Assembly (NCBI GenBank): GCA_903852325.1
Contig: CAINQO010000035.1
Span: 34,117 to 98,116, forward strand
Direction: 5' to 3'
DNA: 64,000 nucleotides
Source of the DNA: Candidatus Omnitrophota bacterium
GTDB lineage: Bacteria; Omnitrophota; Gorgyraeia; Gygaellales; Profunditerraquicolaceae
The notes under the pieces were generated by a model that worked only from the letters and a program-made list of their open reading frames with translations, had not been told where the DNA came from and made no database searches. A program made the position numbers and the translations under genes. This document shows positions 2,656-60,307 of the stretch, piece after piece. The stretch's first letter is position 1. Each line of letters starts with the position of its first letter.

Positions 2656-4713
2656 ATGCCTAAAAATTTAGTGATTGTCGAATCGCCGACCAAAGCCAAA
2701 ACCATCAGCAAGATCCTCGGGGATGATTTCAGGGTAGTTTCCTCGATGGGGCACGTCATCGACCTGCCGGCGAAAAAACTCGGGGTCAATGTTGAGGATA
2801 ACTTTACCCCGGATTATGTGGTGATCCCGGGAAAAAAGAAGATCCTGGCCCAATTGAAAAAAGAAGCCAAAGGAAAAGAAAATATTTATATCGCGACTGA
2901 CCCTGACCGGGAGGGGGAAGCGATCGGCTGGCAGATAAAAGAAAAATTATTCAAGGGTAAAGAAGTCAAGCGGGTCAGTTTCCATGAGATCACCCCGCAC
3001 GCGGTGGCGGAATCTTTTAAAAACGCCAGGGAGTTCGACCTGGAAATGATCCAGGCCCAGGTCGGCCGCCGGGTGCTGGACCGGATGGTGGGTTATTTTC
3101 TGAGCCCTTTACTCTGGAAGAAGCTTGCCCGGGGATTAAGCGCCGGCAGGGTGCAGTCTGTGGGATTGAGGCTGATCGTGGAGAGGGAGCGGCAGATCCA
3201 GGTTTTTGTGCCCAGCGAATATTGGCAGATCGGCGCGGAATTATTCAAGCCCCAGGTGTCCGGGGAGAGCGGTTTTTCCGCGGAACTGGAGAAGATCGGC
3301 GGCGAGAAAGCGCAAATCAAAAACGGCGGCCAGGCCAAGGAGATCTGCGAATTTTTGCGGGATAAAGAATTTAAGGTTCAGGGAGTGAAGAAGTCGGAGA
3401 AGAAGCGTTACCCGCCCGCCCCGTTTATTACCAGCACGATGCAACAGGAAGCGTTCAATAAATTAAGGTTCAACGCCTCCAAAACCATGTTGATCGCCCA
3501 GCAGCTTTACGAAGGGATCGATATCGGCGAGGATAACCCGGTGGGTTTAATTACTTATATGCGTACGGATTCTCCGCATGTCGCCGCCGAAGCGATCCAG
3601 GAGGTGCGCGAGCATATCGGCAGAAGTTTCGGCAAGGATTTTGTCCCGGAGAAGCCCAATGTTTTTAAAGCGAAGAAATCCGCGCAGGAGGCGCACGAAG
3701 CGATCCGCCCCAGCTATGTCTCCCGGAGCCCGGAGAGCCTTAAGGATTTTCTCAATCACGACCAGATCCGGCTTTATACGTTGATCTACAACCGTTTTTT
3801 GGCCAGCCAGATGAAACCGGCGGAGTTCTTAGCGACGGCGGTAGACATCCTGGCGGATAAATATTTATTCGCGGCTAACGGCAGCCATTTGCTTTTTGAG
3901 GGTTTTCTCGCCGCTTACAATAAAGAGGAGGAGGGGGAGGAAAAAGACGAGGAAGAGGAAAAAGAAAAAGATAAGAATAAAAATGTAATTCCTCCTCTGG
4001 AGCAGGGTGAGGTGCTGGGCTTAAAGGGGTTGAATCCTTCGCAGCATTTTACCAAGCCTCCGCCCCGGTATTCGGACAGCTCTTTGATCAAGGCGCTGGA
4101 AGAAGAGGGGATCGGCAGGCCTTCAACCTACGCCCCGATCATTTATACGATCATTTTGCGCGATTATGTGCGCCGGATCAAAGGCTACCTTAATCCTTCC
4201 GAGCTGGGTTTTAAGGTCAATGACCTTTTAGTGGAATACTTCCCCAAGATCCTCGACTTGAAATTTACCGCCGCTATCGAGGAGCAGCTGGATGAGGTGG
4301 AGGAAGGTAAATTGAGCCGGATAAAAGTGCTGGAAGATTTTTACCAGCCGTTTAAGGAAAGCCTGGATTTTGCCCAGGCCAACATCGTCAAGGAAGTGAT
4401 CACTACGGACCAGGTATGCGATAAATGCGGCAAGCCCTTGATCGTGAAGTGGGGCAGGCGCGGAAAATTCTTGAGCTGTTCCGCTTTTCCGGAATGCAAG
4501 AACTCCAAATCGATTACCTCCGGGGTCAAATGCCCGCTGGAAAATTGCGGAGGTGAGCTAATCGAGCGGCGCTCAAAGCGCGGATTTTTCTACGGCTGCT
4601 CGAATTTCCCCAAGTGCACGTTTACTTCGCGTAATTTACCGGATGACAAGGATGAGGCGGAGAAAAAACCCGAAGCACAGCCTGAAGCTAAACCAGAGGA
4701 TAAACAAGAATAA
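2656..4713 (+). CDS. topA: DNA topoisomerase I
   Basis: TOPRIM N-terminus MPKNLVIVESPTKAKTISKILG. C-terminal Cys4 zinc ribbons (CDKCGKPL..., CPLENCGGEL...CSNFPKC). 685 aa. Confidence 0.95.
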   Translation: MPKNLVIVESPTKAKTISKILGDDFRVVSSMGHVIDLPAKKLGVNVEDNFTPDYVVIPGKKKILAQLKKEAKGKENIYIATDPDREGEAIGWQIKEKLFKGKEVKRVSFHEITPHAVAESFKNAREFDLEMIQAQVGRRVLDRMVGYFLSPLLWKKLARGLSAGRVQSVGLRLIVERERQIQVFVPSEYWQIGAELFKPQVSGESGFSAELEKIGGEKAQIKNGGQAKEICEFLRDKEFKVQGVKKSEKKRYPPAPFITSTMQQEAFNKLRFNASKTMLIAQQLYEGIDIGEDNPVGLITYMRTDSPHVAAEAIQEVREHIGRSFGKDFVPEKPNVFKAKKSAQEAHEAIRPSYVSRSPESLKDFLNHDQIRLYTLIYNRFLASQMKPAEFLATAVDILADKYLFAANGSHLLFEGFLAAYNKEEEGEEKDEEEEKEKDKNKNVIPPLEQGEVLGLKGLNPSQHFTKPPPRYSDSSLIKALEEEGIGRPSTYAPIIYTIILRDYVRRIKGYLNPSELGFKVNDLLVEYFPKILDLKFTAAIEEQLDEVEEGKLSRIKVLEDFYQPFKESLDFAQANIVKEVITTDQVCDKCGKPLIVKWGRRGKFLSCSAFPECKNSKSITSGVKCPLENCGGELIERRSKRGFFYGCSNFPKCTFTSRNLPDDKDEAEKKPEAQPEAKPEDKQE

Positions 4714-16754: not shown

Positions 16755-16819
16755 GCAATATACCTGGCGCTTAGTGGTATTGCGCCAGTACGCGCCACGT
16801 GGCGCGAGGGGCGGGATGA

Positions 16820-16894
16820 CCCCGCACCATCTTCTAATTCACGCTTTAAGTCCTAAGGTTTAATAACAATTAACTATAAGGATGGTGCGGGGTG
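16820..16894 (+). promoter_or_regulatory. Leader element copy A (anti-SD arm CCCCGCACCATCTTCT paired with SD/start arm AAGGATGGTGCGGGGTG) upstream of the GT4 gene
   Basis: The 5' arm at 16820..16835 is complementary to 16878..16894, which holds the RBS and the GTG start at 16892. An AT insertion is matched in both arms. The CGCGCCACGTGGCGCG palindrome lies upstream. Confidence 0.6.
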
Positions 16895-21127: not shown

Positions 21128-21250
21128 GTTGAGGAGTGGGGATTGGGTCGAGTAGTGGGATAGGTAGTGCGGGTGAGTTGTGGGGTAGACCAACTACTAA
21201 TCCACACAACCTAACGCACTACTTTACCTAACCCACACTACTCACCCTAT
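21128..21250. repeat. G-rich/C-rich imperfect long palindrome (GTAGTGGG / CCCACTAC / ACTACTAAT words); related copy at 58419
   Basis: GGATTGGGTCGAGTAGTGGGATAGGTAGTGCGGGTGAGTTGTGGGGTAG is followed by the near-complementary CTAATCCACACAACCTAACGCACTACTTTACCTAACCCACACTACTCACCC. Immediately 3' of the GT9-GT9 gene. Confidence 0.5.
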
Positions 21251-21281
21251 GCTCGATTTTGGCTATCCAGTAATGCTTGAT

Positions 21282-21315: not shown

Positions 21316-22245
21316 ATGATCAACTTAAAGAAGGTTAAAAGATATTCGCTTAAAGCCCGTTTAAGCAAGGTAAATAAGGGGGATTTTGCCCTTAAACCGG
21401 CTAAAGGCAGGAGTTTTTCCGTTTTTTTTGACTCCTTACCTAATATTTTAAAAGCCAAAGATTTACGCTCGGTTTCTGCCGATATTATCGCGGCGCGCCG
21501 GAAAAATAAAGGGGTGATTTTAATGGCCGGGGCCCACGTGATCAAGTGCGGGCTTAATCCGGTTTTGATCGAGTTGTTGGAAAAAAAAGTGATTACCTGT
21601 ATCTGCCTTAACGGGGCCGGATTGATCCACGATTTTGAGATCGCCTACCAGGGGAAGACTTCGGAAGATGTGGCCGCCAACCTCAAAGACGGGAAATTCG
21701 GGATGGGGATCGAGACCGCGGATTTTATCAACGCCGCGGTCAAAGAAGGGACTGAGGCGGGCTTTGGATTAGGTTATGCCTTAGCCAATAAAATGGCCGG
21801 GGCAGCTTTACCCAATAAAGATCTAAGCCTGATTTATAATGCCTATAAGCGTAAAATCCCGGTTTGTGTTTTTGCGGCGATCGGTACGGATATAATCCAT
21901 CAGCACCCTTCTTTCGACGCTGCGGCAACCGCCGTGGGCTCATTGCGGGATTTCCATATCCTGGTGGAGAGGATCCGCTCCTTGAATCAGGGGGGAGTGG
22001 TTTTAAATTTCGGCTCCGCGGTGCTTTTGCCTGAAGTATTTTTAAAGGCTTTGAACCTTGCCCGCAACCTGGGCAGCAAAGTGAAAGATTTTACTTCCGC
22101 TAATTTCGATATGATTTACCAGTACCGCGCGGCACAGAATGTAGTGAGCCGTCCCACCGCTTCCGGGGGTAAAGGCTATTATATTATCGGTCACCATGAG
22201 ATCATGCTGCCGCTTTTAGCCCAAAGTATATTGGAAAAAATCTGA
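21316..22245 (+). CDS. Deoxyhypusine synthase (DHS)-like NAD-binding family protein, function unknown, embedded in the LPS/heptose locus
   Basis: Three blocks follow the DHS pattern. AGAHVIKCGLNPVLIELLEKKVITCICLNGAGLIHDFE matches SN.ISSG.RE.I..L.....VDV.VTTAGGVEED. IPVCVFAAIGTDIIHQH matches IPVF.PA.TDGS.GD. LNQGGVVLNFGS matches GGGVVKHH. Start moved from the track's 21277 to the internal ATG at 21316 because 21277 overlaps the putative -35 box. Confidence 0.5.
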   Translation: MINLKKVKRYSLKARLSKVNKGDFALKPAKGRSFSVFFDSLPNILKAKDLRSVSADIIAARRKNKGVILMAGAHVIKCGLNPVLIELLEKKVITCICLNGAGLIHDFEIAYQGKTSEDVAANLKDGKFGMGIETADFINAAVKEGTEAGFGLGYALANKMAGAALPNKDLSLIYNAYKRKIPVCVFAAIGTDIIHQHPSFDAAATAVGSLRDFHILVERIRSLNQGGVVLNFGSAVLLPEVFLKALNLARNLGSKVKDFTSANFDMIYQYRAAQNVVSRPTASGGKGYYIIGHHEIMLPLLAQSILEKI

Positions 22246-22246
22246 C

Positions 22247-22317
22247 CCCGCACCTTCTTCGTATTCGATCTGAAGGTCAGGGGTAAAAAATAGTTAATAA
22301 TAGGAAGGTGCGGGGTG
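22247..22317 (+). promoter_or_regulatory. Leader element copy B (CCCCGCACCTTCTTC ... AGGAAGGTGCGGGGTG) upstream of hldE
   Basis: The 5' arm starts 2 nt after the upstream stop. An internal GAAGGTCAGGGG can alternatively pair with the anti-SD. The 3' arm supplies the SD and GTG start (22315). Confidence 0.6.
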
Positions 22318-23328
22318 AAGAACCTAAAAGAGATTGTCCGCAAATTCAAGCGGGCTAATATTTTGGTCGTCGGAGACCTGATCCTGGATGAATACATCTG
22401 GGGCGCGGTGGAGAGGATCTCTCCGGAGGCTCCCGTGCCGGTGCTTTGGGCCAACAAACGTACTTTTGTTCCCGGGGGCACCGCTAACGTGGCCAATAAC
22501 ATCGGCTCCTTCGGGGCAAAAGTGACTCTTTTGGGGGTCACCGGTTCCGACGCGAACTCCAAGATTTTGCTGGGCGAATTAAAGAAGAGAAAGATCGATA
22601 CGCGGGGTATTTTTGTCGAAAAAAATCGGCACACTACGGTCAAGACGCGGATCCTGGCCGGGCATCAGCAGGTAGTCCGGGTGGATTGGGAACATACCCA
22701 TGATCTGTCTCAAGAGTTAAACGATAAGATTTTAAAATTCATCCAGAAGAATATCGATGATTTCGACGCGATCATTATCGAGGATTACGGCAAAGGGGTA
22801 ATCAATGTCCCGCTCTTGAAAACGCTGATCGCTTTGGCGAAAAACCATAAAAAAATCATTACCGTTGATCCGAAAGAGGAGAACTTTCAGTTTTATCGGT
22901 CGGTAGATTCGATCACTCCTAACCGCAAGGAGCTGGAAAACGCGATAAGGAATTTGAAGATCCAGGACACGACCAACGGTTTCAAGATCAATACGGATAA
23001 ACTCTTTACGGATAAGGATGTGGACCGGGCTGCCCGGGAGATCCTGGAATACCTGCGTCTTGATTCTATTCTGGTTACCCTGGGGGAGCACGGGATGAAA
23101 CTTTTGGAAAAGAACGGCCGCCTTACCCATATTCCCACGGTAGCCCAGGAAGTTTTCGATGTTTCCGGCGCGGGGGATACCGTAATCAGCACCTTTACCC
23201 TGGCTTTAAGCGTGGGCGCTTCCAAATTAGAGGCGGCGCACATCGCCAATTTTGCCGCAGGGATAGTGGTAGGTAAATTGGGCACGGCAGTGACCAACAC
23301 TAAAGAACTATTAGAAAGGATTAAATAA
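22315..23328 (+). CDS. hldE: D-glycero-beta-D-manno-heptose 7-phosphate kinase (HldE domain I / RfaE1, PfkB family); no fused adenylyltransferase domain
   Basis: ILVVGDLILDEYIWGAVERISPEAPVPVL and the C-terminal DVSGAGDTV ribokinase motif. 337 aa, GTG start. Confidence 0.85.
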   Translation: MKNLKEIVRKFKRANILVVGDLILDEYIWGAVERISPEAPVPVLWANKRTFVPGGTANVANNIGSFGAKVTLLGVTGSDANSKILLGELKKRKIDTRGIFVEKNRHTTVKTRILAGHQQVVRVDWEHTHDLSQELNDKILKFIQKNIDDFDAIIIEDYGKGVINVPLLKTLIALAKNHKKIITVDPKEENFQFYRSVDSITPNRKELENAIRNLKIQDTTNGFKINTDKLFTDKDVDRAAREILEYLRLDSILVTLGEHGMKLLEKNGRLTHIPTVAQEVFDVSGAGDTVISTFTLALSVGASKLEAAHIANFAAGIVVGKLGTAVTNTKELLERIK

Positions 23329-27403: not shown

Positions 27404-28106
27404 GGGCCTGGCTAAATCCTATGACGGTCGCTGGGTGGTTAAGGGCGTGGATATCACGGTCAAGCGCGGGGAGATCGTCGGGCTTTTAGGCCCCAACGGA
27501 GCCGGCAAGACTACTACTTTTTATATGATCGTCGGGATCGTCCCCCCCAACAAGGGCACGATCGTTTTTGATAACCATGAAATCACCCGGATGGCGATCC
27601 ACGAGCGGGCGCGTTTCGGGATCGGCTATCTTGCCCAGGAACCCTCGATATTCCGGAAACTGACCGTGGAAGAAAATATCAACGCGATCCTGGAGACTTT
27701 GCCTTTGAGCCGCGCGCAGAGAAAAAACCGGCTGGCGTTTTTGCTGGAGGAGTTGAATATCGCGCACCTGGCAAAGCATAAAGCCTACACTTTAAGCGGC
27801 GGAGAGAGAAGGCGCCTGGAGATCACCCGGGCGCTGGTGACCAATCCTTCTTTTATCCTGCTGGATGAACCTTTCAGCGGGATCGACCCGATCGTCGTCA
27901 ATGAAGCGCAGGAGATCATTAAGGAATTAAAGGCCAAAGGCCTGGGTATTCTTTTGACCGACCATAATGTGCGGGAGACCCTGGCGATCACCGACCGGGC
28001 GTATTTAATTTCCGAAGGGGCGATCCTTATTTCCGGATCCGCGGAGGAGCTGATTAATCACCCTCAGGCCCGCCAGGTTTATTTAGGTGAGAAGTTTAGG
28101 ATGTAA
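27384..28106 (+). CDS. lptB: LPS export ABC transporter ATP-binding protein
   Basis: Walker [12 protein letters not shown], signature [11 protein letters not shown], Walker B ILLDEP. 240 aa. Confidence 0.9.
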
Positions 28107-28248
28107 CCCCGCACCTTCTTCTGTATTCGGAAGAAAAACGGATTGATTAAAGGCGCGGGACAATAATAACCATGGTCATTTCTTTAAACATCAAGGTTCA
28201 AAGCTTAGATGCAGGGAATGATATAATTAAGAAAGAAGGTGCGGGGTG
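28107..28248 (+). promoter_or_regulatory. Leader element copy C (CCCCGCACCTTCTTC ... AAGAAGGTGCGGGGTG) upstream of tig, with a 25-codon uORF
   Basis: The 5' arm begins at the first nt after the lptB TAA. The uORF at 28173..28250 ends with TGA overlapping the tig GTG (GGTGA). Confidence 0.6.
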
Positions 28249-29133
28249 AAAACCGAAGTTAAGAAATTAGACGGAACTAAACGTGAAATTAATGTCGCCG
28301 TGACCGGCGACTTGGTCAAAAATAAATTTGAAGAAGTTTTCGCACAGGTCGCCAAAGAAGCCAAGGTCCCGGGTTTTCGCCCGGGAAAAGCGCCCCGGGA
28401 TCTTCTGGAAAAGCATTACGGTTCCAGCGTCCATGAGCAGGTGTTAAAGGAGCTGGTCCCGGATGTGTATAACCAGGCGGTCGCGGCGGAAAAACTCGAT
28501 GTCATTGAGCTGCCCCAGATCACCGATGTGCAGCTGGATCGGGCCAGCCTTTCTTTTAAAGCGGTCGTGGAGGTCAGCCCGGAAATTACGCTGAAGAATT
28601 ATAAAAACCAGGTAATTAATTATAAGCTGCCGGTTGTTTCCGCGGATGAAGTGAAACGCCAGATCGACTCGGTCAAGGAATCGCGTAAGGCCGAAAACCT
28701 GGATGATAAATTCGCCCGCTCCCTGGGTTATCCTGATTTAGGGGAATTGGAAAAAGCGGTGGAAAGACAGATCTTTCTTACCAAGGAGAATCAGGAACGC
28801 CAGCGGATTGAAAATGAATTAATCGAAAATATTACCAAAGGGGTGGAATTTAAGCTGCCGCAAGGATTGGTGGACCGGCAGGTTCAGGATATGCTGCGGC
28901 AGACCAAGATCGATTTGGCGATGAAAGGGCTGCCCCGGGAGAAGATCGACGCGCAGGATAAATTGCTTTTAGAGGGGATCGAACCGGAAGCAAAAAAGCA
29001 GGTCAAGATTTACCTGATCCTGGCGCAGATCGCGAAAAAAGAGAATATCGCCATCGACGACCATATGCCGCGCAAGGTGATGGAGTTTCTGCTGGGTGAA
29101 GCAGAGTGGAAGGCTGCACAAGAGAATAAATAG
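28246..29133 (+). CDS. tig: Trigger factor lacking the central FKBP/PPIase domain
   Basis: N-terminal ribosome-binding domain (MKTEVKKLDGTKREINVAV..., GFRPGKAP signature) joined directly to the C-terminal chaperone arm. 295 aa versus about 430 typical. GTG start. Confidence 0.8.
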   Translation: MKTEVKKLDGTKREINVAVTGDLVKNKFEEVFAQVAKEAKVPGFRPGKAPRDLLEKHYGSSVHEQVLKELVPDVYNQAVAAEKLDVIELPQITDVQLDRASLSFKAVVEVSPEITLKNYKNQVINYKLPVVSADEVKRQIDSVKESRKAENLDDKFARSLGYPDLGELEKAVERQIFLTKENQERQRIENELIENITKGVEFKLPQGLVDRQVQDMLRQTKIDLAMKGLPREKIDAQDKLLLEGIEPEAKKQVKIYLILAQIAKKENIAIDDHMPRKVMEFLLGEAEWKAAQENK

Positions 29134-29152
29134 CGGTATTCATGTTGATTAG

Positions 29153-29260
29153 CTCCGCGCCTAAGCCTTGGATGTTACGCTTAGCATATATTCGAATATT
29201 GTAACGCGCGGAGTAAATTAAAAATTACCACTTATTATAAATAATTTTAAATTTAAGGAG
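29153..29260 (+). promoter_or_regulatory. Conserved structured element upstream of clpP (copy 1 of 2; second copy upstream of queH)
   Basis: 8-bp stem CTCCGCGC/GCGCGGAG enclosing CTAAGCCT..GTTACG..ATATATTCGAATATTGTAAC, then GTAAATTAAAAATTACCACTTATTATAAATAATTTT and the clpP RBS. Confidence 0.6.
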
Positions 29261-31076: not shown

Positions 31077-31091
31077 ATTTAGAGAAAGAGC

Positions 31092-31219
31092 AAATCCTAG
31101 GCACTAAATCCTAAACTCTAAACAAACTCAAAAAATTTAAACTCAAAACCCGAAACATGGGTTTGGAGTTTTGGATTTTGGATTTGTTTAGGATTTAGAG
31201 TTTAGTGTTTAGAGTTTAG
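31092..31219. repeat. Long imperfect hairpin built from inverted heptamer tandem repeats (CTAAAYN x3 ... NGTTTAG x4) between serC and serA
   Basis: The left arm CTAAATC CTAAACT CTAAACA AACTCAAAA...AAACCC and loop GAAACAT precede the right arm GGGTTTGGAGTTTTGGATTTTGGATTTGTTTAG GATTTAG AGTTTAG TGTTTAG AGTTTAG. The arms are A/C-rich versus G/T-rich. Confidence 0.5.
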
Positions 31220-31240
31220 AATAATAATGAGGGGTGAGAG

Positions 31241-35852: not shown

Positions 35853-37198
<1,346 letters not shown>

Positions 37199-53550: not shown

Positions 53551-53719
53551 AGGAAGGGCGGGATGAACCCTGCATTTTCTTGTTATTCAATATTAAAGTC
53601 TTAGGAATTTGATGATTAAACAGAAGGAAGGTGCGGGGGTGAATCCCGCTCCTTCTAATTGTTCAATGCTAAAACCCATACGTTTTAAAGAATTCAATAA
53701 GAAAGAAGGAGCGGGATGA
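53550..53719 (+). promoter_or_regulatory. Tandem (degenerate plus intact) leader element copies E1/E2 upstream of scpA, each with a uORF
   Basis: Pseudo-start AAGGAAGGGCGGGATGAA (53550..53567), then uORF1 MNPAFSCYSILKS (53563..53604). Second pseudo-start AGAAGGAAGGTGCGGGGGTGAA, anti-SD TCCCGCTCCTTCT (53644..53656) and uORF2 MNPAPSNCSMLKPIRFKEFNKKEGAG (53639..53719). Real SD AGAAGGAGCGGGA (53704..53716), exactly complementary to the anti-SD with two compensatory changes relative to the consensus. Confidence 0.6.
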
Positions 53720-54489
53720 ATTATAAAATCCGCTTAGAGATGTTTGAGGGGCCCTTAGACCTGCTGCTTTACCTGGTCAAGAAAGACCACCTGAATATCT
53801 ACGATATCCCCATCGCCAAGGTCACCCAGCAATACCTGGAATATATCAACCTGATGCAGCTTTTGGATTTGAATGTGGTCGGGGAGTTTTTGGTGATGGC
53901 GGCGACCCTGATGCAGATAAAATCCAAGATGCTTCTTCCGGCGGAGGAGTTGGCCGCGCAGGAGGAGGAAGAGGATCCGCGCGCTGAGCTGGTCAAGCGG
54001 CTTTTGGAATATGAAAAATTCAAACAGATCGCCGAAAATTTAAAACAGCGGGAAGCCAGCCAGCAGGAAGTTTTTAAACGCCCCAAGACCGAGACCCCGC
54101 AGGAGCTGCAGGTGCAGGATAAGGAAGAGGAAAAGTATTTTGAAGCCAGCATTTTTGACCTGATCGATGCCTTTTCCCGGGCGATCAAAGACATCCCCCG
54201 GGAAGTTTTTTACGAAGTGATTAAGGATCAGTTTACGGTCGAGCAGAAGGTGCATGATATTCTGCATTTATTGCTGGTAGAAACAAAAATCAAGCTTTCG
54301 GATCTTTTCTCCAAGAGCAAGGGCAAGCTAGAGATCATCGCCATATTTTTGGCGATCCTTGAGCTGGCGAAAATGAAGGAGATCCTTGCCCGCCAGGACG
54401 CCGATTTTGCCGACATTATCATTATCCGCAACAAGGAAAACATAATCCCTTATGAACGAAGAGACCAGACACCCGCTGCTGAAGGCTAA
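53716..54489 (+). CDS. scpA: Segregation and condensation protein A
   Basis: FEGPLDLLLYLVKKDHLNIYDIPIAKVTQQYLEYI. 257 aa. Confidence 0.85.
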   Translation: MNYKIRLEMFEGPLDLLLYLVKKDHLNIYDIPIAKVTQQYLEYINLMQLLDLNVVGEFLVMAATLMQIKSKMLLPAEELAAQEEEEDPRAELVKRLLEYEKFKQIAENLKQREASQQEVFKRPKTETPQELQVQDKEEEKYFEASIFDLIDAFSRAIKDIPREVFYEVIKDQFTVEQKVHDILHLLLVETKIKLSDLFSKSKGKLEIIAIFLAILELAKMKEILARQDADFADIIIIRNKENIIPYERRDQTPAAEG

Positions 54490-55504
54490 TTCCGTTATCA
54501 CCGACGTAAAAGAATCCGAAGAGGATATTGTTTTAAATATATCCCTGCGGCCAAATAAATTTACGGATTTTGTCGGGCATAAGGATATCGTGGATAACCT
54601 TAAAATTTCCATCCAGGCCGCCAAGCAAAGGAGCGAGCCCCTGGAGCATGTGCTTTTAAGCGGGCCTCCGGGTTTAGGCAAAACTTCCCTGTCGCATATT
54701 ATCGCTCACGAAATGGGGGCAAAGATCACCGCCACCAGCGGCCCGGCGATCGAGCGGGCCGGGGACCTGATCGGGATCCTTACCAACCTGGAAAGAGGGG
54801 ATATCCTGTTTATCGACGAGATCCACCGGATGTCTAAAGTCGTGGAAGAATTCCTGTATCCGGCGATGGAAAGTTTCCAGATCGATTTTATAATCGATAA
54901 AGGCCCTTACGCTAAAACGATTAAATTCAACCTCAAGCCTTTTACCCTGATCGGCGCCACCACCCGCACCGGGCTTCTGGCCGCTCCGCTCAGGGGGCGC
55001 TTCGGTTTGTTCTACAGCCTGGATTTTTATAAAGAGGAGGAGCTGGCCAGAATAATCAAAAATTCAAGCCAGCTGTTGACGATAAAGATCGATGACGCGG
55101 CGGCACTGGAGATCGCCAAGCGTTCCCGGGGGACTCCCCGGATCGCCAACCGCCTCCTGCGCCGGGTAAGGGATTACGCTCAGGTGTTGAAAATGGATAA
55201 AGTCGAACGGGCCTCGGCCTCCAAGATCCTGGATGACCTGGGTATCGACCAGGCCGGGTTTGATGACCTGGACCGTAAAGTTTTGAGATTAATTTTGGAA
55301 TCATTCGGCGGAGGGCCGGTGGGGATAGAATCTTTGGCCGCCAGCCTCAATGAAGAAGTGGATACGATCGAAGATGCGGTGGAACCCTATCTGTTGATGG
55401 CCGGATATTTAAAGCGCACTTCCCGGGGGCGCCTGGCCACCCGTAAAGCTTATGAACATTTCGGTTTAAAATTCAACCGGGAACAGCAGGAAGAGATTTT
55501 CTAA
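54452..55504 (+). CDS. ruvB: Holliday junction branch migration helicase RuvB
   Basis: LSGPPGLGKTSLSHIIAHEMGAKITATSGPAIERAGDLIGILTNLERGDILFIDEIHRMS. 350 aa. Confidence 0.9.
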   Translation: MNEETRHPLLKANSVITDVKESEEDIVLNISLRPNKFTDFVGHKDIVDNLKISIQAAKQRSEPLEHVLLSGPPGLGKTSLSHIIAHEMGAKITATSGPAIERAGDLIGILTNLERGDILFIDEIHRMSKVVEEFLYPAMESFQIDFIIDKGPYAKTIKFNLKPFTLIGATTRTGLLAAPLRGRFGLFYSLDFYKEEELARIIKNSSQLLTIKIDDAAALEIAKRSRGTPRIANRLLRRVRDYAQVLKMDKVERASASKILDDLGIDQAGFDDLDRKVLRLILESFGGGPVGIESLAASLNEEVDTIEDAVEPYLLMAGYLKRTSRGRLATRKAYEHFGLKFNREQQEEIF

Positions 55505-55544
55505 ATTAACAATTGCCACTGATTATAATAGGTAGTGGTTGAAA

Positions 55545-55645
55545 GCGTCGAACTAAGCCTATAGGTTACGGTTTATATATATTCGAATATTGAAACGTTC
55601 GACGTAAATTAAAAATTACCACTGATTATAAACAATTTTTAATTT
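55545..55645 (+). promoter_or_regulatory. Conserved structured element upstream of queH (copy 2 of 2)
   Basis: 8-bp stem CGTCGAAC/GTTCGACG (different sequence from copy 1 at equivalent positions) enclosing TAAGCCT..GGTTACG..ATATATTCGAATATTGAAAC, then GTAAATTAAAAATTACCACTGATTATAAACAATTTTT. Confidence 0.6.
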
Positions 55646-56203
55646 ATGGATATTCTGTTGCACATCTGCTGCGGGCCTTGTTTGATTTATCCTTTCGGCA
55701 AATTAAAAGAAAAAGGATTTAATATCCGGGGTTATTACTATAATCCCAATCTCTATCCGCAGGATGAATATCTTCGCCGCGTTGAGGCGCTGCAGCTCTT
55801 ATGCCGGGAATTTTCGCTGGAGGTCGCCTATCCCGGGCACAACCCTGAGGATTTTTCCCGGACAGTTAAATCCCTGGAAGATCCTTTGGCAAAACAGCGC
55901 TGCGTTTTATGCTGGTCATTGCGTTTGCGTAAGACCGCCCAGGCGGCCAGGGAAGCCGGCGTAAAAACGTTCAGCACTACTTTATTGGTCAGCCCGTACC
56001 AGGATCATGACGCGTTGCGCCGTTTAGGCACTCAGATCGCCCGGGAAACCGGCGTAGATTTTTATTATGAAGATTTCCGCCCCGGGTTTAAATGGGCGCA
56101 GCAGGAAGCGAAAGATAAAGGTATTTACCGGCAAAAATATTGCGGCTGCGAATATTCCATGGTGAAAACAAAACCGGCCGCACCGGTCCAGGCAAAAAAA
56201 TGA
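55646..56203 (+). CDS. queH: Epoxyqueuosine reductase QueH (DUF208)
   Basis: HICCGPC...YNPN...C..C Cys motifs of the QueH family. 185 aa. Confidence 0.85.
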   Translation: MDILLHICCGPCLIYPFGKLKEKGFNIRGYYYNPNLYPQDEYLRRVEALQLLCREFSLEVAYPGHNPEDFSRTVKSLEDPLAKQRCVLCWSLRLRKTAQAAREAGVKTFSTTLLVSPYQDHDALRRLGTQIARETGVDFYYEDFRPGFKWAQQEAKDKGIYRQKYCGCEYSMVKTKPAAPVQAKK

Positions 56204-58408: not shown

Positions 58409-58418
58409 ATAATTTTGG

Positions 58419-58490
58419 TTTAGTAGTGAGGGTTAGGCTAGGCAGTGTGTTAAGTAGTGGGGTTGGGTAGTGGGTAATACTCACTACTAA
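58419..58490. repeat. G-rich hairpin repeat (11-bp stem TTAGTAGTGAG/CTCACTACTAA around a G-run loop), related to 21128
   Basis: Loop GGTTAGGCTAGGCAGTGTGTTAAGTAGTGGGGTTGGGTAGTGGGTAATA contains at least 5 G-runs. Shares the GTAGTGGG and ACTACTAAT words with the 21128 repeat. Confidence 0.5.
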
Positions 58491-58517
58491 TACATTTCTG
58501 AATTTTAGGGTTAATAA

Positions 58518-60307
<1,790 letters not shown>

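Follow-up and report, generated by a model that had tools for sequence, protein, structure and literature searches.

Small interspersed repeats that form hairpins, REP, ERIC and MITEs among them, are well known in Proteobacteria and Firmicutes. ERIC sequences, also called IRU, are imperfect palindromes of ~127 bp in transcribed intergenic regions of enterobacteria, and we know of no established account of how they move. The hairpins of HUH endonucleases, at IS200/IS605 ends and rolling-circle origins, place variable GC stems around a conserved A/T-rich loop. REP sequences are palindromes of 20-40 nt that bear an unpaired GTAG/CGTC tag on one end (PMC3733652), and REPINs are hairpins preserved through compensatory changes (PMC3116915). 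A literature search found no description of small interspersed hairpin repeats in the uncultivated phylum Omnitrophota.

The element described here is a multi-copy, insertion-derived repeat whose orientation is independent of its neighbours. It falls into stem-defined subfamilies that extend across species, and its pairing is kept by compensatory change. It is probably an undescribed interspersed non-coding repeat of the MITE/REP/ERIC kind, ~105-140 nt long and present in a few Candidatus Omnitrophota genomes, with copies inserted into short gene junctions.

The double hairpin before clpP and queH

The window, the 64,000-nt stretch of DNA analysed here (1-64000), is from a Candidatus Omnitrophota bacterium, and its proteins have their nearest relatives in entries with this annotation. 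Its + strand carries all long ORFs judged to be genes, and short overlaps of a few nucleotides between neighbours are common. The first gene on the opposite strand is a helicase ~3 kb to the left of the window (L042:2290-4170). The non-coding segments 29153-29255, before clpP, and 55546-55646, before queH, are homologous. A sequence-only reading had reported shared sequence at these two places, and it is located as claimed: the alignment covers ~135 nt, from ~20 nt 5' of the stem to the start of the downstream gene, and includes an 86-nt stretch without gaps at 85% identity. Pfam bears out the gene identities given there, ClpP (PF00574) and QueH (PF02677), and likewise confirms Tig and RuvB. 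The trigger factor (window 28246-29133) has 291-295 aa in the window species and all close relatives, with Trigger_N and Trigger_C domains and no match to a PPIase domain.

Each copy consists of three parts, a short leader, a stem-loop (SL1) and a second hairpin (hp2). The features of the tig-clpP copy (w1) and the ruvB-queH copy (w2) are as follows.

29134..29152, + strand: w1 5' leader, between the tig stop TAG (29131-29133) and SL1; weak likeness to the w2 and w3 leaders (..GTTGATTAG)
29153..29213, + strand: w1 SL1, stem type A, CTCCGCGC (29153-29160) / GCGCGGAG (29206-29213)
Within w1 SL1, + strand: conserved core of 45 nt, CTAAGCCTTGGATGTTACGCTTAGCATATATTCGAATATTGTAAC, holding the inner helix GTTAC/GTAAC
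29188..29199, no strand: w1 palindrome ATATTCGAATAT, 12 bp, at the SL1 apex
29214..29255, + strand: w1 hp2, arms TAAATTAAAAATT / AATTTTAAATTTA, loop of 16 nt
55502..55528, + strand: extra partial hp2 5' arm and loop of w2, TAAATTAACAATTGCCACTGATTATAA, beginning with the ruvB stop TAA
55529..55545, + strand: w2 leader TAGGTAGTGGTTGAAAG; its AGTGGT is complementary to ACCACT of the hp2 loop
55546..55604, + strand: w2 SL1, stem type B, CGTCGAAC (55546-55553) / GTTCGACG (55597-55604), core of 43 nt
55579..55590, no strand: w2 palindrome ATATTCGAATAT, 12 bp, at the SL1 apex
55605..55646, + strand: w2 hp2, arms TAAATTAAAAATT / AATTTTTAATTTA

SL1 has a total length of 59-61 nt, with an 8-bp, GC-rich, variable stem around a conserved core of 43-45 nt. 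The outer stem is stacked on an inner helix of 5-6 bp, GTTAC(G)/(T)GTAAC; a conserved 5' bulge of 11-13 nt (TAAGCCTAGGAT) is unpaired, and the apex is A/T-rich and contains the palindrome in w1 and w2. An additional unpaired C separates stem from core in w1. Directly 3' of SL1 follows hp2, an A-tract/T-tract hairpin of 13-15 bp with arms TAAAWYAAAAA.. / ..TTTTTRWTTTA. Folding as RNA and as ssDNA gives an identical double hairpin, with fold z-scores of -1.7 to -4.8 and -3.5 to -5.6, respectively. The end of w1 hp2 abuts the clpP Shine-Dalgarno (SD) sequence AGGAGG (29256) exactly, and the final A of w2 hp2 is the A of the queH ATG (55646).

A 20-mer of hp2 matches the window three times at up to three mismatches, compared with no match in 100 shuffles. 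The third match, at 55510 immediately 3' of the ruvB stop, had been overlooked in the sequence-only reading. The hp2 3' arm (55633-55645) is matched in inverted orientation, at 12/13, by the first 13 nt of the extra partial hp2 copy of w2, so that this extra copy is a candidate left terminal inverted repeat. The perfect 12-bp palindrome is indeed present in both copies, and these are its two exact matches in the window, at 29188 and 55579; with up to two mismatches, the 12-mer alone occurs six times against 3.9 expected, which is no enrichment.

Known RNA classes gave no identification. Searched at the gathering threshold, Rfam 15 matches nothing anywhere in the window; the two 200-nt regions, searched at E<=10, give chance matches only, at 10-20 bits against thresholds of 43-100 bits. 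ARAGORN finds no tRNA or tmRNA in the window; at a locus of a second species, L009, where a copy lies among tRNA genes, it calls the neighbouring true tRNAs and not the element. Two readings made by eye were rejected: a conserved small ORF through SL1, which is 20 codons long in w1 and shifted in frame elsewhere by indels, and a T-loop or tRNA-like reading of UUCGAAU, for which the closing pair is missing. A scan for intrinsic terminators, defined as a GC-rich stem with a 3-8 nt loop followed by a U-run, calls nothing at the w1 and w2 elements. SL1 encloses 43-45 nt and is without a T-run, and the A- and T-tracts of hp2 make up the stem itself. The hp2 hairpins of the window species have energies of -1.9 to -7.8 kcal/mol; those of the copies L013, L014 and L017 described below reach -12 to -14.5 kcal/mol.

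Copies, stems and base pairing

Copies were sought by a genome pattern scan, by local reading and by nhmmer over 421 kb of loci. The genome scan, with an exact pattern and one genome per species, gave four further copies in two Omnitrophota MAGs, PPR_0475 (loci L017 and L009) and STB_134 (loci L013 and L014). Two more, w3 and w4, lie on contigs of the window species at loci extending beyond the window (L036 and L042). Altogether there are eight full copies and one truncated copy in three Candidatus Omnitrophota genomes, at least four of them (w1-w4) in the window species. Beyond w1 and w2 they are located as follows.

L036:12333-12391, sense: w3, between metF and cdhC/ACS
L042:2191-2248, convergent neighbours: w4, between a Macro/NUDIX gene and a DEAD helicase gene
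L017 and L013, antisense to the genes: directly after the ftsA stop
L014: divergent from recG
L009: within a tRNA spacer array, without hp2; a truncated copy is also present here

These numbers are lower bounds, because the exact-pattern scans demanded a perfect palindrome and would pass over diverged copies, of which w3 and w4 are examples; the source genome was covered over ~100 kb, so that the window-species count is likewise a minimum. The other 12 of the 16 genome-scan loci were discarded as chance matches in non-Omnitrophota genomes (Bacteroidota, Wolbachia, others), as were three metagenome loci found with TAAGCC..GTTAC..TATTCGAATA, all inside unrelated sequence. Viral contigs gave no copies, and blastn against plasmids and phages just 40-nt A/T-rich chance matches. 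In the ~100 kb examined of close relatives there is no copy. The strains seen offer no case of a missing copy (L001-L005 and L036-L038 are identical), and none of the orthologues of the L009, L013, L014 and L017 genes sought for site comparison is present in the window.

The eight full copies carry six different stems.

Stem A: CTCCGCGC / GCGCGGAG, in w1 and L017
Stem B: CGTCGAAC / GTTCGACG, in w2 and L013
Stem C: CATCGAGC / GCTCGATG, in L009
Stem D: TACCGGCC / GGCCGGTG, in L014
Stem E: CTCCGAAC / GTTCGGAG, in w3, a hybrid with its outer half like A and its inner half like B
Stem F: CGCCGAAC / GTTCGGCG, in w4

The stem alignment (A3) was made after removal of the single bulged C of w1 and L017 and of an insert in L014. 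In it, 64/64 outer-stem cells are paired: four of the eight pairs show double changes, three are invariant and one shows U-G. Positions 2, 3, 6 and 7 are variable and positions 4, 5 and 8 fixed, giving the pattern CNYCGNNC. When the 3' partner is slid by 1-3 columns as a control, pairing falls to 27-45%. The sequence-only reading had inferred covariation from w1 and w2 and had described their stems as completely different. The stems differ at four of eight positions (2, 3, 6 and 7) and agree at 1, 4, 5 and 8, so that this description was too strong; the covariation itself is real, all four differences being compensated, and complementary arms in additional copies, a check set in advance, were found throughout.

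Compensation extends beyond the outer stem. The inner helix of w4 has changed from GTTAC/GTAAC to GATAC/GTATC, and the hp2 arms covary (C-G in TAAATC../..GATTTA; TTGC/GCAA versus TTACC/GGTAA). Two changes are one-sided, U1-G60 (L014) and G37-U44 (w3), and each of them is a G-U when read on the + strand. The compensatory changes in stem, inner helix and hp2 indicate that pairing is under selection. The remaining SL1 core is too invariant for a covariation test; a pseudoknot CTAAGC/GCTTAG, paired in 80% of cells with zero double changes, was not retained.

The palindrome is perfect in 6/8 copies, matches at 11/12 positions in w3, and at 10/12 in w4, where it is also asymmetric. Because w4 keeps both helices, with compensated stems, despite its broken palindrome, the palindrome is not the essential feature, which argues against the suggestion that it is the site of a dimeric regulator. 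The AT-rich second block ("block 2"), taken in the same reading for a promoter, is the hp2 5' arm and loop and has no -35. A scan for sigma-70 promoters (-35 and -10 hexamers at 16-18 nt spacing) finds in w1 only TTAAAA-16-AATAAT (9/12) and in w2 nothing on the + strand, and TATAAA is absent from hp2 of L013, L014, L017 and w4.

Stem types also group the SL1 cores. Core identity within a type is 93% for w1-L017, 91% for w2-L013 and 95% for w3-L013, compared with 78-89% between stem types, and cores are closer across species within a type than across types within a genome; hp2 and the leader, unlike the SL1 cores, are species-specific. The neighbours of the element comprise clpP, queH, cdhC, the 3' ends of a helicase gene and of ftsA, recG and tRNA spacers. 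Orientations are mixed: three of the eight copies are sense (w1-w3), two antisense after ftsA, one convergent, one divergent from recG and one in the tRNA spacer array.

Stem-defined paralogues conserved between species and an orientation independent of neighbours would suit a multi-copy family of small RNA genes, with SL1 as RNA body, hp2 as intrinsic terminator and a promoter for each copy; a structured domain followed by an A/T-tract hairpin also resembles the 3' part of an sRNA gene. We nevertheless consider such a family very unlikely. No copy has a conserved promoter 5' of SL1, the flanks are unrelated between species, and the + strand promoter scans are negative, while canonical sigma-70 promoters are readily seen elsewhere, e.g. 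TTGCTT-17-TATAAT before yggS. The L009 copy without hp2 and the negative Rfam result also count against it.

Filled and empty sites at gene junctions

Four of the occupied junctions have empty counterparts in related genomes.

tig-clpP: 2-14 nt in relatives, SD only (Tig 85-87% identical); 133 nt in the window species
ruvB-queH: 6 nt, overlap (CTAGTGATG) or 20 nt in relatives (QueH 67-73% identical); 141 nt in the window species
metF-cdhC: overlap as TAATG in relatives; 154 nt in the window species
3' of ftsA: filled in L017 and L013; empty in L039, a closer relative, and in the window species

The L039 ftsA-yggS junction has a canonical terminator followed by the TTGCTT-17-TATAAT promoter before yggS. 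Dispersed copies with filled and empty sites between genomes are what is expected of MITEs. Since the relatives are without the element and have almost no intergenic space at the orthologous clpP and queH junctions, it is a lineage-specific insertion there and not an ancestral control region.

This bears on the proposal that the element is private to clpP and queH and marks a common regulon. Two copies do lie directly upstream of these genes, and the palindrome is perfect in six of eight copies, as would fit a shared cis-regulatory site, either an operator with its promoter or a leader RNA with a common regulator. Other copies, however, stand before cdhC, between convergent genes and in the different contexts and orientations of the other species; both junctions are without the element in relatives; and w3 and w4 combine a degraded palindrome with intact stem pairing. 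A dsDNA operator offers no reason for compensated flanking arms, and block 2 has no -35 and shows no promoter conservation in other species. The constant position and orientation, coherent genes and orthologous upstream conservation that define a regulon were not found, and we regard this explanation as extremely improbable.

Comparison of empty and filled sites at ruvB-queH, tig-clpP and metF-cdhC shows no direct repeat of the target-site duplication type, and the TA..TA around hp2 is inseparable from the palindrome of hp2 itself. The stop codon is TAG at the empty ruvB sites of L025 and L028 and at the empty ftsA site of L039, and TAA at filled sites; L029, also empty at ruvB, has its own earlier TAA. 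The pattern hints at insertion at or within the stop codon. Upstream of SL1, an inverted match to the hp2 3' arm is found at 12/13 in w2 (0/1000 shuffles), 10/13 in w3 (46/1000) and 12/15 in L013 (26/1000), in each case 27-32 nt upstream; in w1, w4, L014 and L017 it is not significant. Judged by these sequence matches, a terminal inverted repeat is possible, and convincing in w2 only among the copies tested. No transposase or other partner gene occurs in the 7-8 kb that surround any copy, and no RAYT gene in the window, beside any copy or in the 421 kb of loci.

At the ftsA site, stem type A is present in the L017 species and type B in the L013 species. Simple vertical descent does not explain this. 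Here, and for the SL1 cores that follow stem type when hp2 and leader follow the species, two routes are possible: a preferred target may have been entered independently, or copies may have undergone conversion. The L014 copy carries a 45-nt insert nested within SL1, with the outer stem undisturbed. A different hairpin module of 139 nt (CACCTRGCCCAGAKAGGWATTGGGCYAG..GCC..GGCGA; L035:7817-7955) occupies the tig-clpP junction of a relative, and its core is homologous to the L014 insert (L014:243-290). The tig-clpP junction has thus been struck independently by two different elements.

Further intergenic repeats were noted in the same genomes. A second family (window 16817-16894, 22243-22319, 28104-28250, 35854-35935, 53581-53637 and 53640-53721) has a GC-rich stem of 13-16 bp. 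Its 5' arm, (T)GAMCCCGCNCCTTCT, includes the stop codon of the upstream gene in two copies, and its 3' arm, AGAAGGNGCGGGRTGA, contains GAAGGTG, which resembles an SD, as well as the GTG/ATG start codon of the gene that follows (tig, scpA, others). Covariation is seen between the arms (ACCCCGCACC/GGTGCGGGGT versus ATCCCGCTCC/GGAGCGGGAT), and in relatives trpS and scpA overlap and a plain AAGAAAGGGAACAAATG precedes tig. This family looks like an inserted cassette that sequesters RBS and start codon, and it could enforce translational coupling. A third family (window 21128-21276 and 58409-58520; L041:8496-8727) comprises imperfect hairpins of 110-230 nt with GTAGTG/GGGTGAG-type motifs, GTAG-rich as REP tags are; one member, a GTAG-rich long hairpin, fills the ftsA-yggS junction of the window species, the SL1/hp2 site elsewhere. 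A fourth (window 31077-31240; L042:5345-5450) consists of TTTAGAGTTTAGTGTTTAGGATTT-type repeats between genes, long hairpins of ~160 nt with an RNA fold of -52 kcal/mol.

In a relative, a RAYT-like ORF (L032:2040-2760; NF047646, 63.9 bits, E=1.4e-17, below the 80-bit cut-off) has eight tandem ATCGGGCAACCAC copies upstream and a partial self-duplicate after it (2931-3164). Its position corresponds to the window hairpin 21128-21276, and it is not flanked by the SL1/hp2 element. The spacers of tRNA-Val, tRNA-Leu and tRNA-Cys at L009:5290-6100 are filled with at least five hairpin modules that have 8-bp CNYCGNNC stems as in SL1 and different conserved loops (e.g. TTAGACTGGATATTCTCTAAGGTAGC), which suggests a superfamily of hairpins with exchangeable loops. 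An RNA gene that has escaped annotation may lie at L014:1-160 on the - strand, where a non-coding stretch ends, downstream of the element, in a well-formed intrinsic terminator, CCCCGGTAACATTCGGGGCTTTTTTG.

At its outer end, hp2 frequently coincides with a gene boundary. This end lies at the SD of clpP (w1) and of cdhC (w3) and overlaps the ATG of queH (w2); in w4, L013 and L017 it shares bases with the stop codon of a gene on the other strand. The element could be a domesticated mRNA module at operon junctions, serving the upstream gene as a 3'-end stabiliser or partial terminator, or acting as an RNase site, or as a rod fold that joins the stop codon to the downstream start so that genes without an SD, such as queH, stay translated. 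The three operon-internal copies of the window species are all sense, with hp2 ending at the SD or overlapping the ATG; queH is without an SD here and in relatives, where it overlaps or abuts ruvB; w2 folded with its flanks pairs TCTAAATTAACAATTG with CAATTTTTAATTTATGGA; and both one-sided stem changes give G-U on the + strand. Published REP families, too, are found chiefly downstream of ORFs, with action as RNA supposed for many of them (PMC3733652). Against this, L013, L017 and w4 are antisense or convergent to their neighbours, so that the conserved core would be present on the transcribed strand as its complement. The hp2 hairpin of the window species is weak and made of A/U pairs alone (-1.9 to -7.8 kcal/mol), no terminator-like site scored at the element, and w2 folded without its flanks exchanges the rod for local hairpins of equal energy. 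As a general account, a domesticated mRNA module seems to us rather unlikely; for the three sense copies of the window species, an acquired role in mRNA (insulation, stabilisation or kept translational coupling) is a serious rival.

Mobility and comparison with described elements

The origin that we favour, an interspersed repeat inserted into short junctions, has its own difficulties. There is no transposase near the copies and no clear target-site duplication; a conserved loop with a variable stem is the reverse of the classical REP/REPIN; and at the ftsA site two species differ in stem type, A against B. That all three operon-internal copies of the window species are sense and end at the next SD or start codon could reflect a selected function rather than tolerance.

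If the element is such a repeat, the hairpin would be the form under selection, most likely as an ssDNA (or RNA) substrate of a trans-acting protein that mobilises or processes it. This protein would read the bulge and core by sequence and the stem by shape alone, comparable to REP/REPIN, ERIC and IS200-type ends, and stem variants would then mark subfamilies. Effects on clpP, queH and cdhC may be by-products: the insert would part genes that are adjacent or translationally coupled in relatives and set an A/U-rich hairpin against the SD or start codon of the next gene, or against the stop codon of an opposite-strand gene. More specifically, and quite doubtfully, the mobile modules of Omnitrophota might include a new, hairpin-borne class defined by SL1, in which the unpaired 43-45 nt core would be the substrate of a putative single-strand-specific enzyme (HUH/Y1-like or other) and the variable positions of CNYCGNNC would give subfamily identity. 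The occurrence of the stem pattern on other loops in L009, together with a module nested in SL1 in L014, would then point to a general 'loop-swapping' hairpin system that colonises the stop/start junctions of compact operons.

With six stem variants that are all paired and with clear filled and empty sites, the family is a clean natural example of selection on base pairing. It also illustrates that compact operons with overlapping genes tolerate insertions of 120-150 nt exactly at stop and start codons. For annotation it is a caution: what is taken for a 'conserved upstream motif with covariation' may belong to a repeat element and not signal a regulon.

Among described systems, HUH substrates share the variable, compensated GC stem and the sequence-conserved unpaired region, and the SL1 core contains a TTAC motif. 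The unpaired region of SL1 is far larger, at 43-45 nt, and has no linked HUH gene and no identified nick site. ERIC sequences resemble the element in size (here ~105-140 nt), in lying within operons and between genes in either orientation, in their presence or absence among related genomes, and in longer variants that arise by internal insertion of a module, as in L014. They differ in having no sequence relation to it and in forming a single long imperfect palindrome instead of a double hairpin with stem-defined subfamilies.

Bacterial MITEs (Correia/NEMIS, RUP, BOX) are, like the element, non-autonomous, ~100-150 nt long, A/T-rich at their ends and polymorphic for insertion, and they can separate or rewire adjacent genes; w2 in particular is bounded by 12/13 inverted 13-mers. 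In contrast to MITEs, most copies of the element have no demonstrable terminal inverted repeats, and neither a target-site duplication nor a parent IS is seen.

REP/REPIN sequences are likewise short, non-coding, intergenic, hairpin-forming and present in many copies per genome (PMC3116915; PMC3733652). Unidirectional as well as convergent gene pairs have them in between, most often immediately 3' of an ORF (PMC3733652), and the element likewise sits mainly at ORF ends. REP/REPIN sequences combine a compensated hairpin with an unpaired conserved motif beside the stem (PMC3116915; PMC3733652). The hairpin kept by compensatory changes that characterises REPINs (PMC3116915) is found here as well, whereas the unpaired GTAG/CGTC tag on a 20-40 nt palindrome (PMC3733652) is not: the element has no consistent tag, SL1 flanks vary among copies, and CGTC occurs solely as the paired start of stem B. 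REP sequences conserve the palindrome itself within 20-40 nt, whereas SL1, at 59-61 nt with a 43-45 nt interior, conserves loop and bulge and varies the stem. REP/REPIN are mobilised by RAYT tyrosine transposases, whose genes as a rule have the repeats on their flanks; the window and the surroundings of the copies contain no RAYT gene. Because the tag is missing and the evidence from terminal repeats and duplications is not decisive, we file the element in no named family, but as one that works in the manner of REP, ERIC and MITE sequences.
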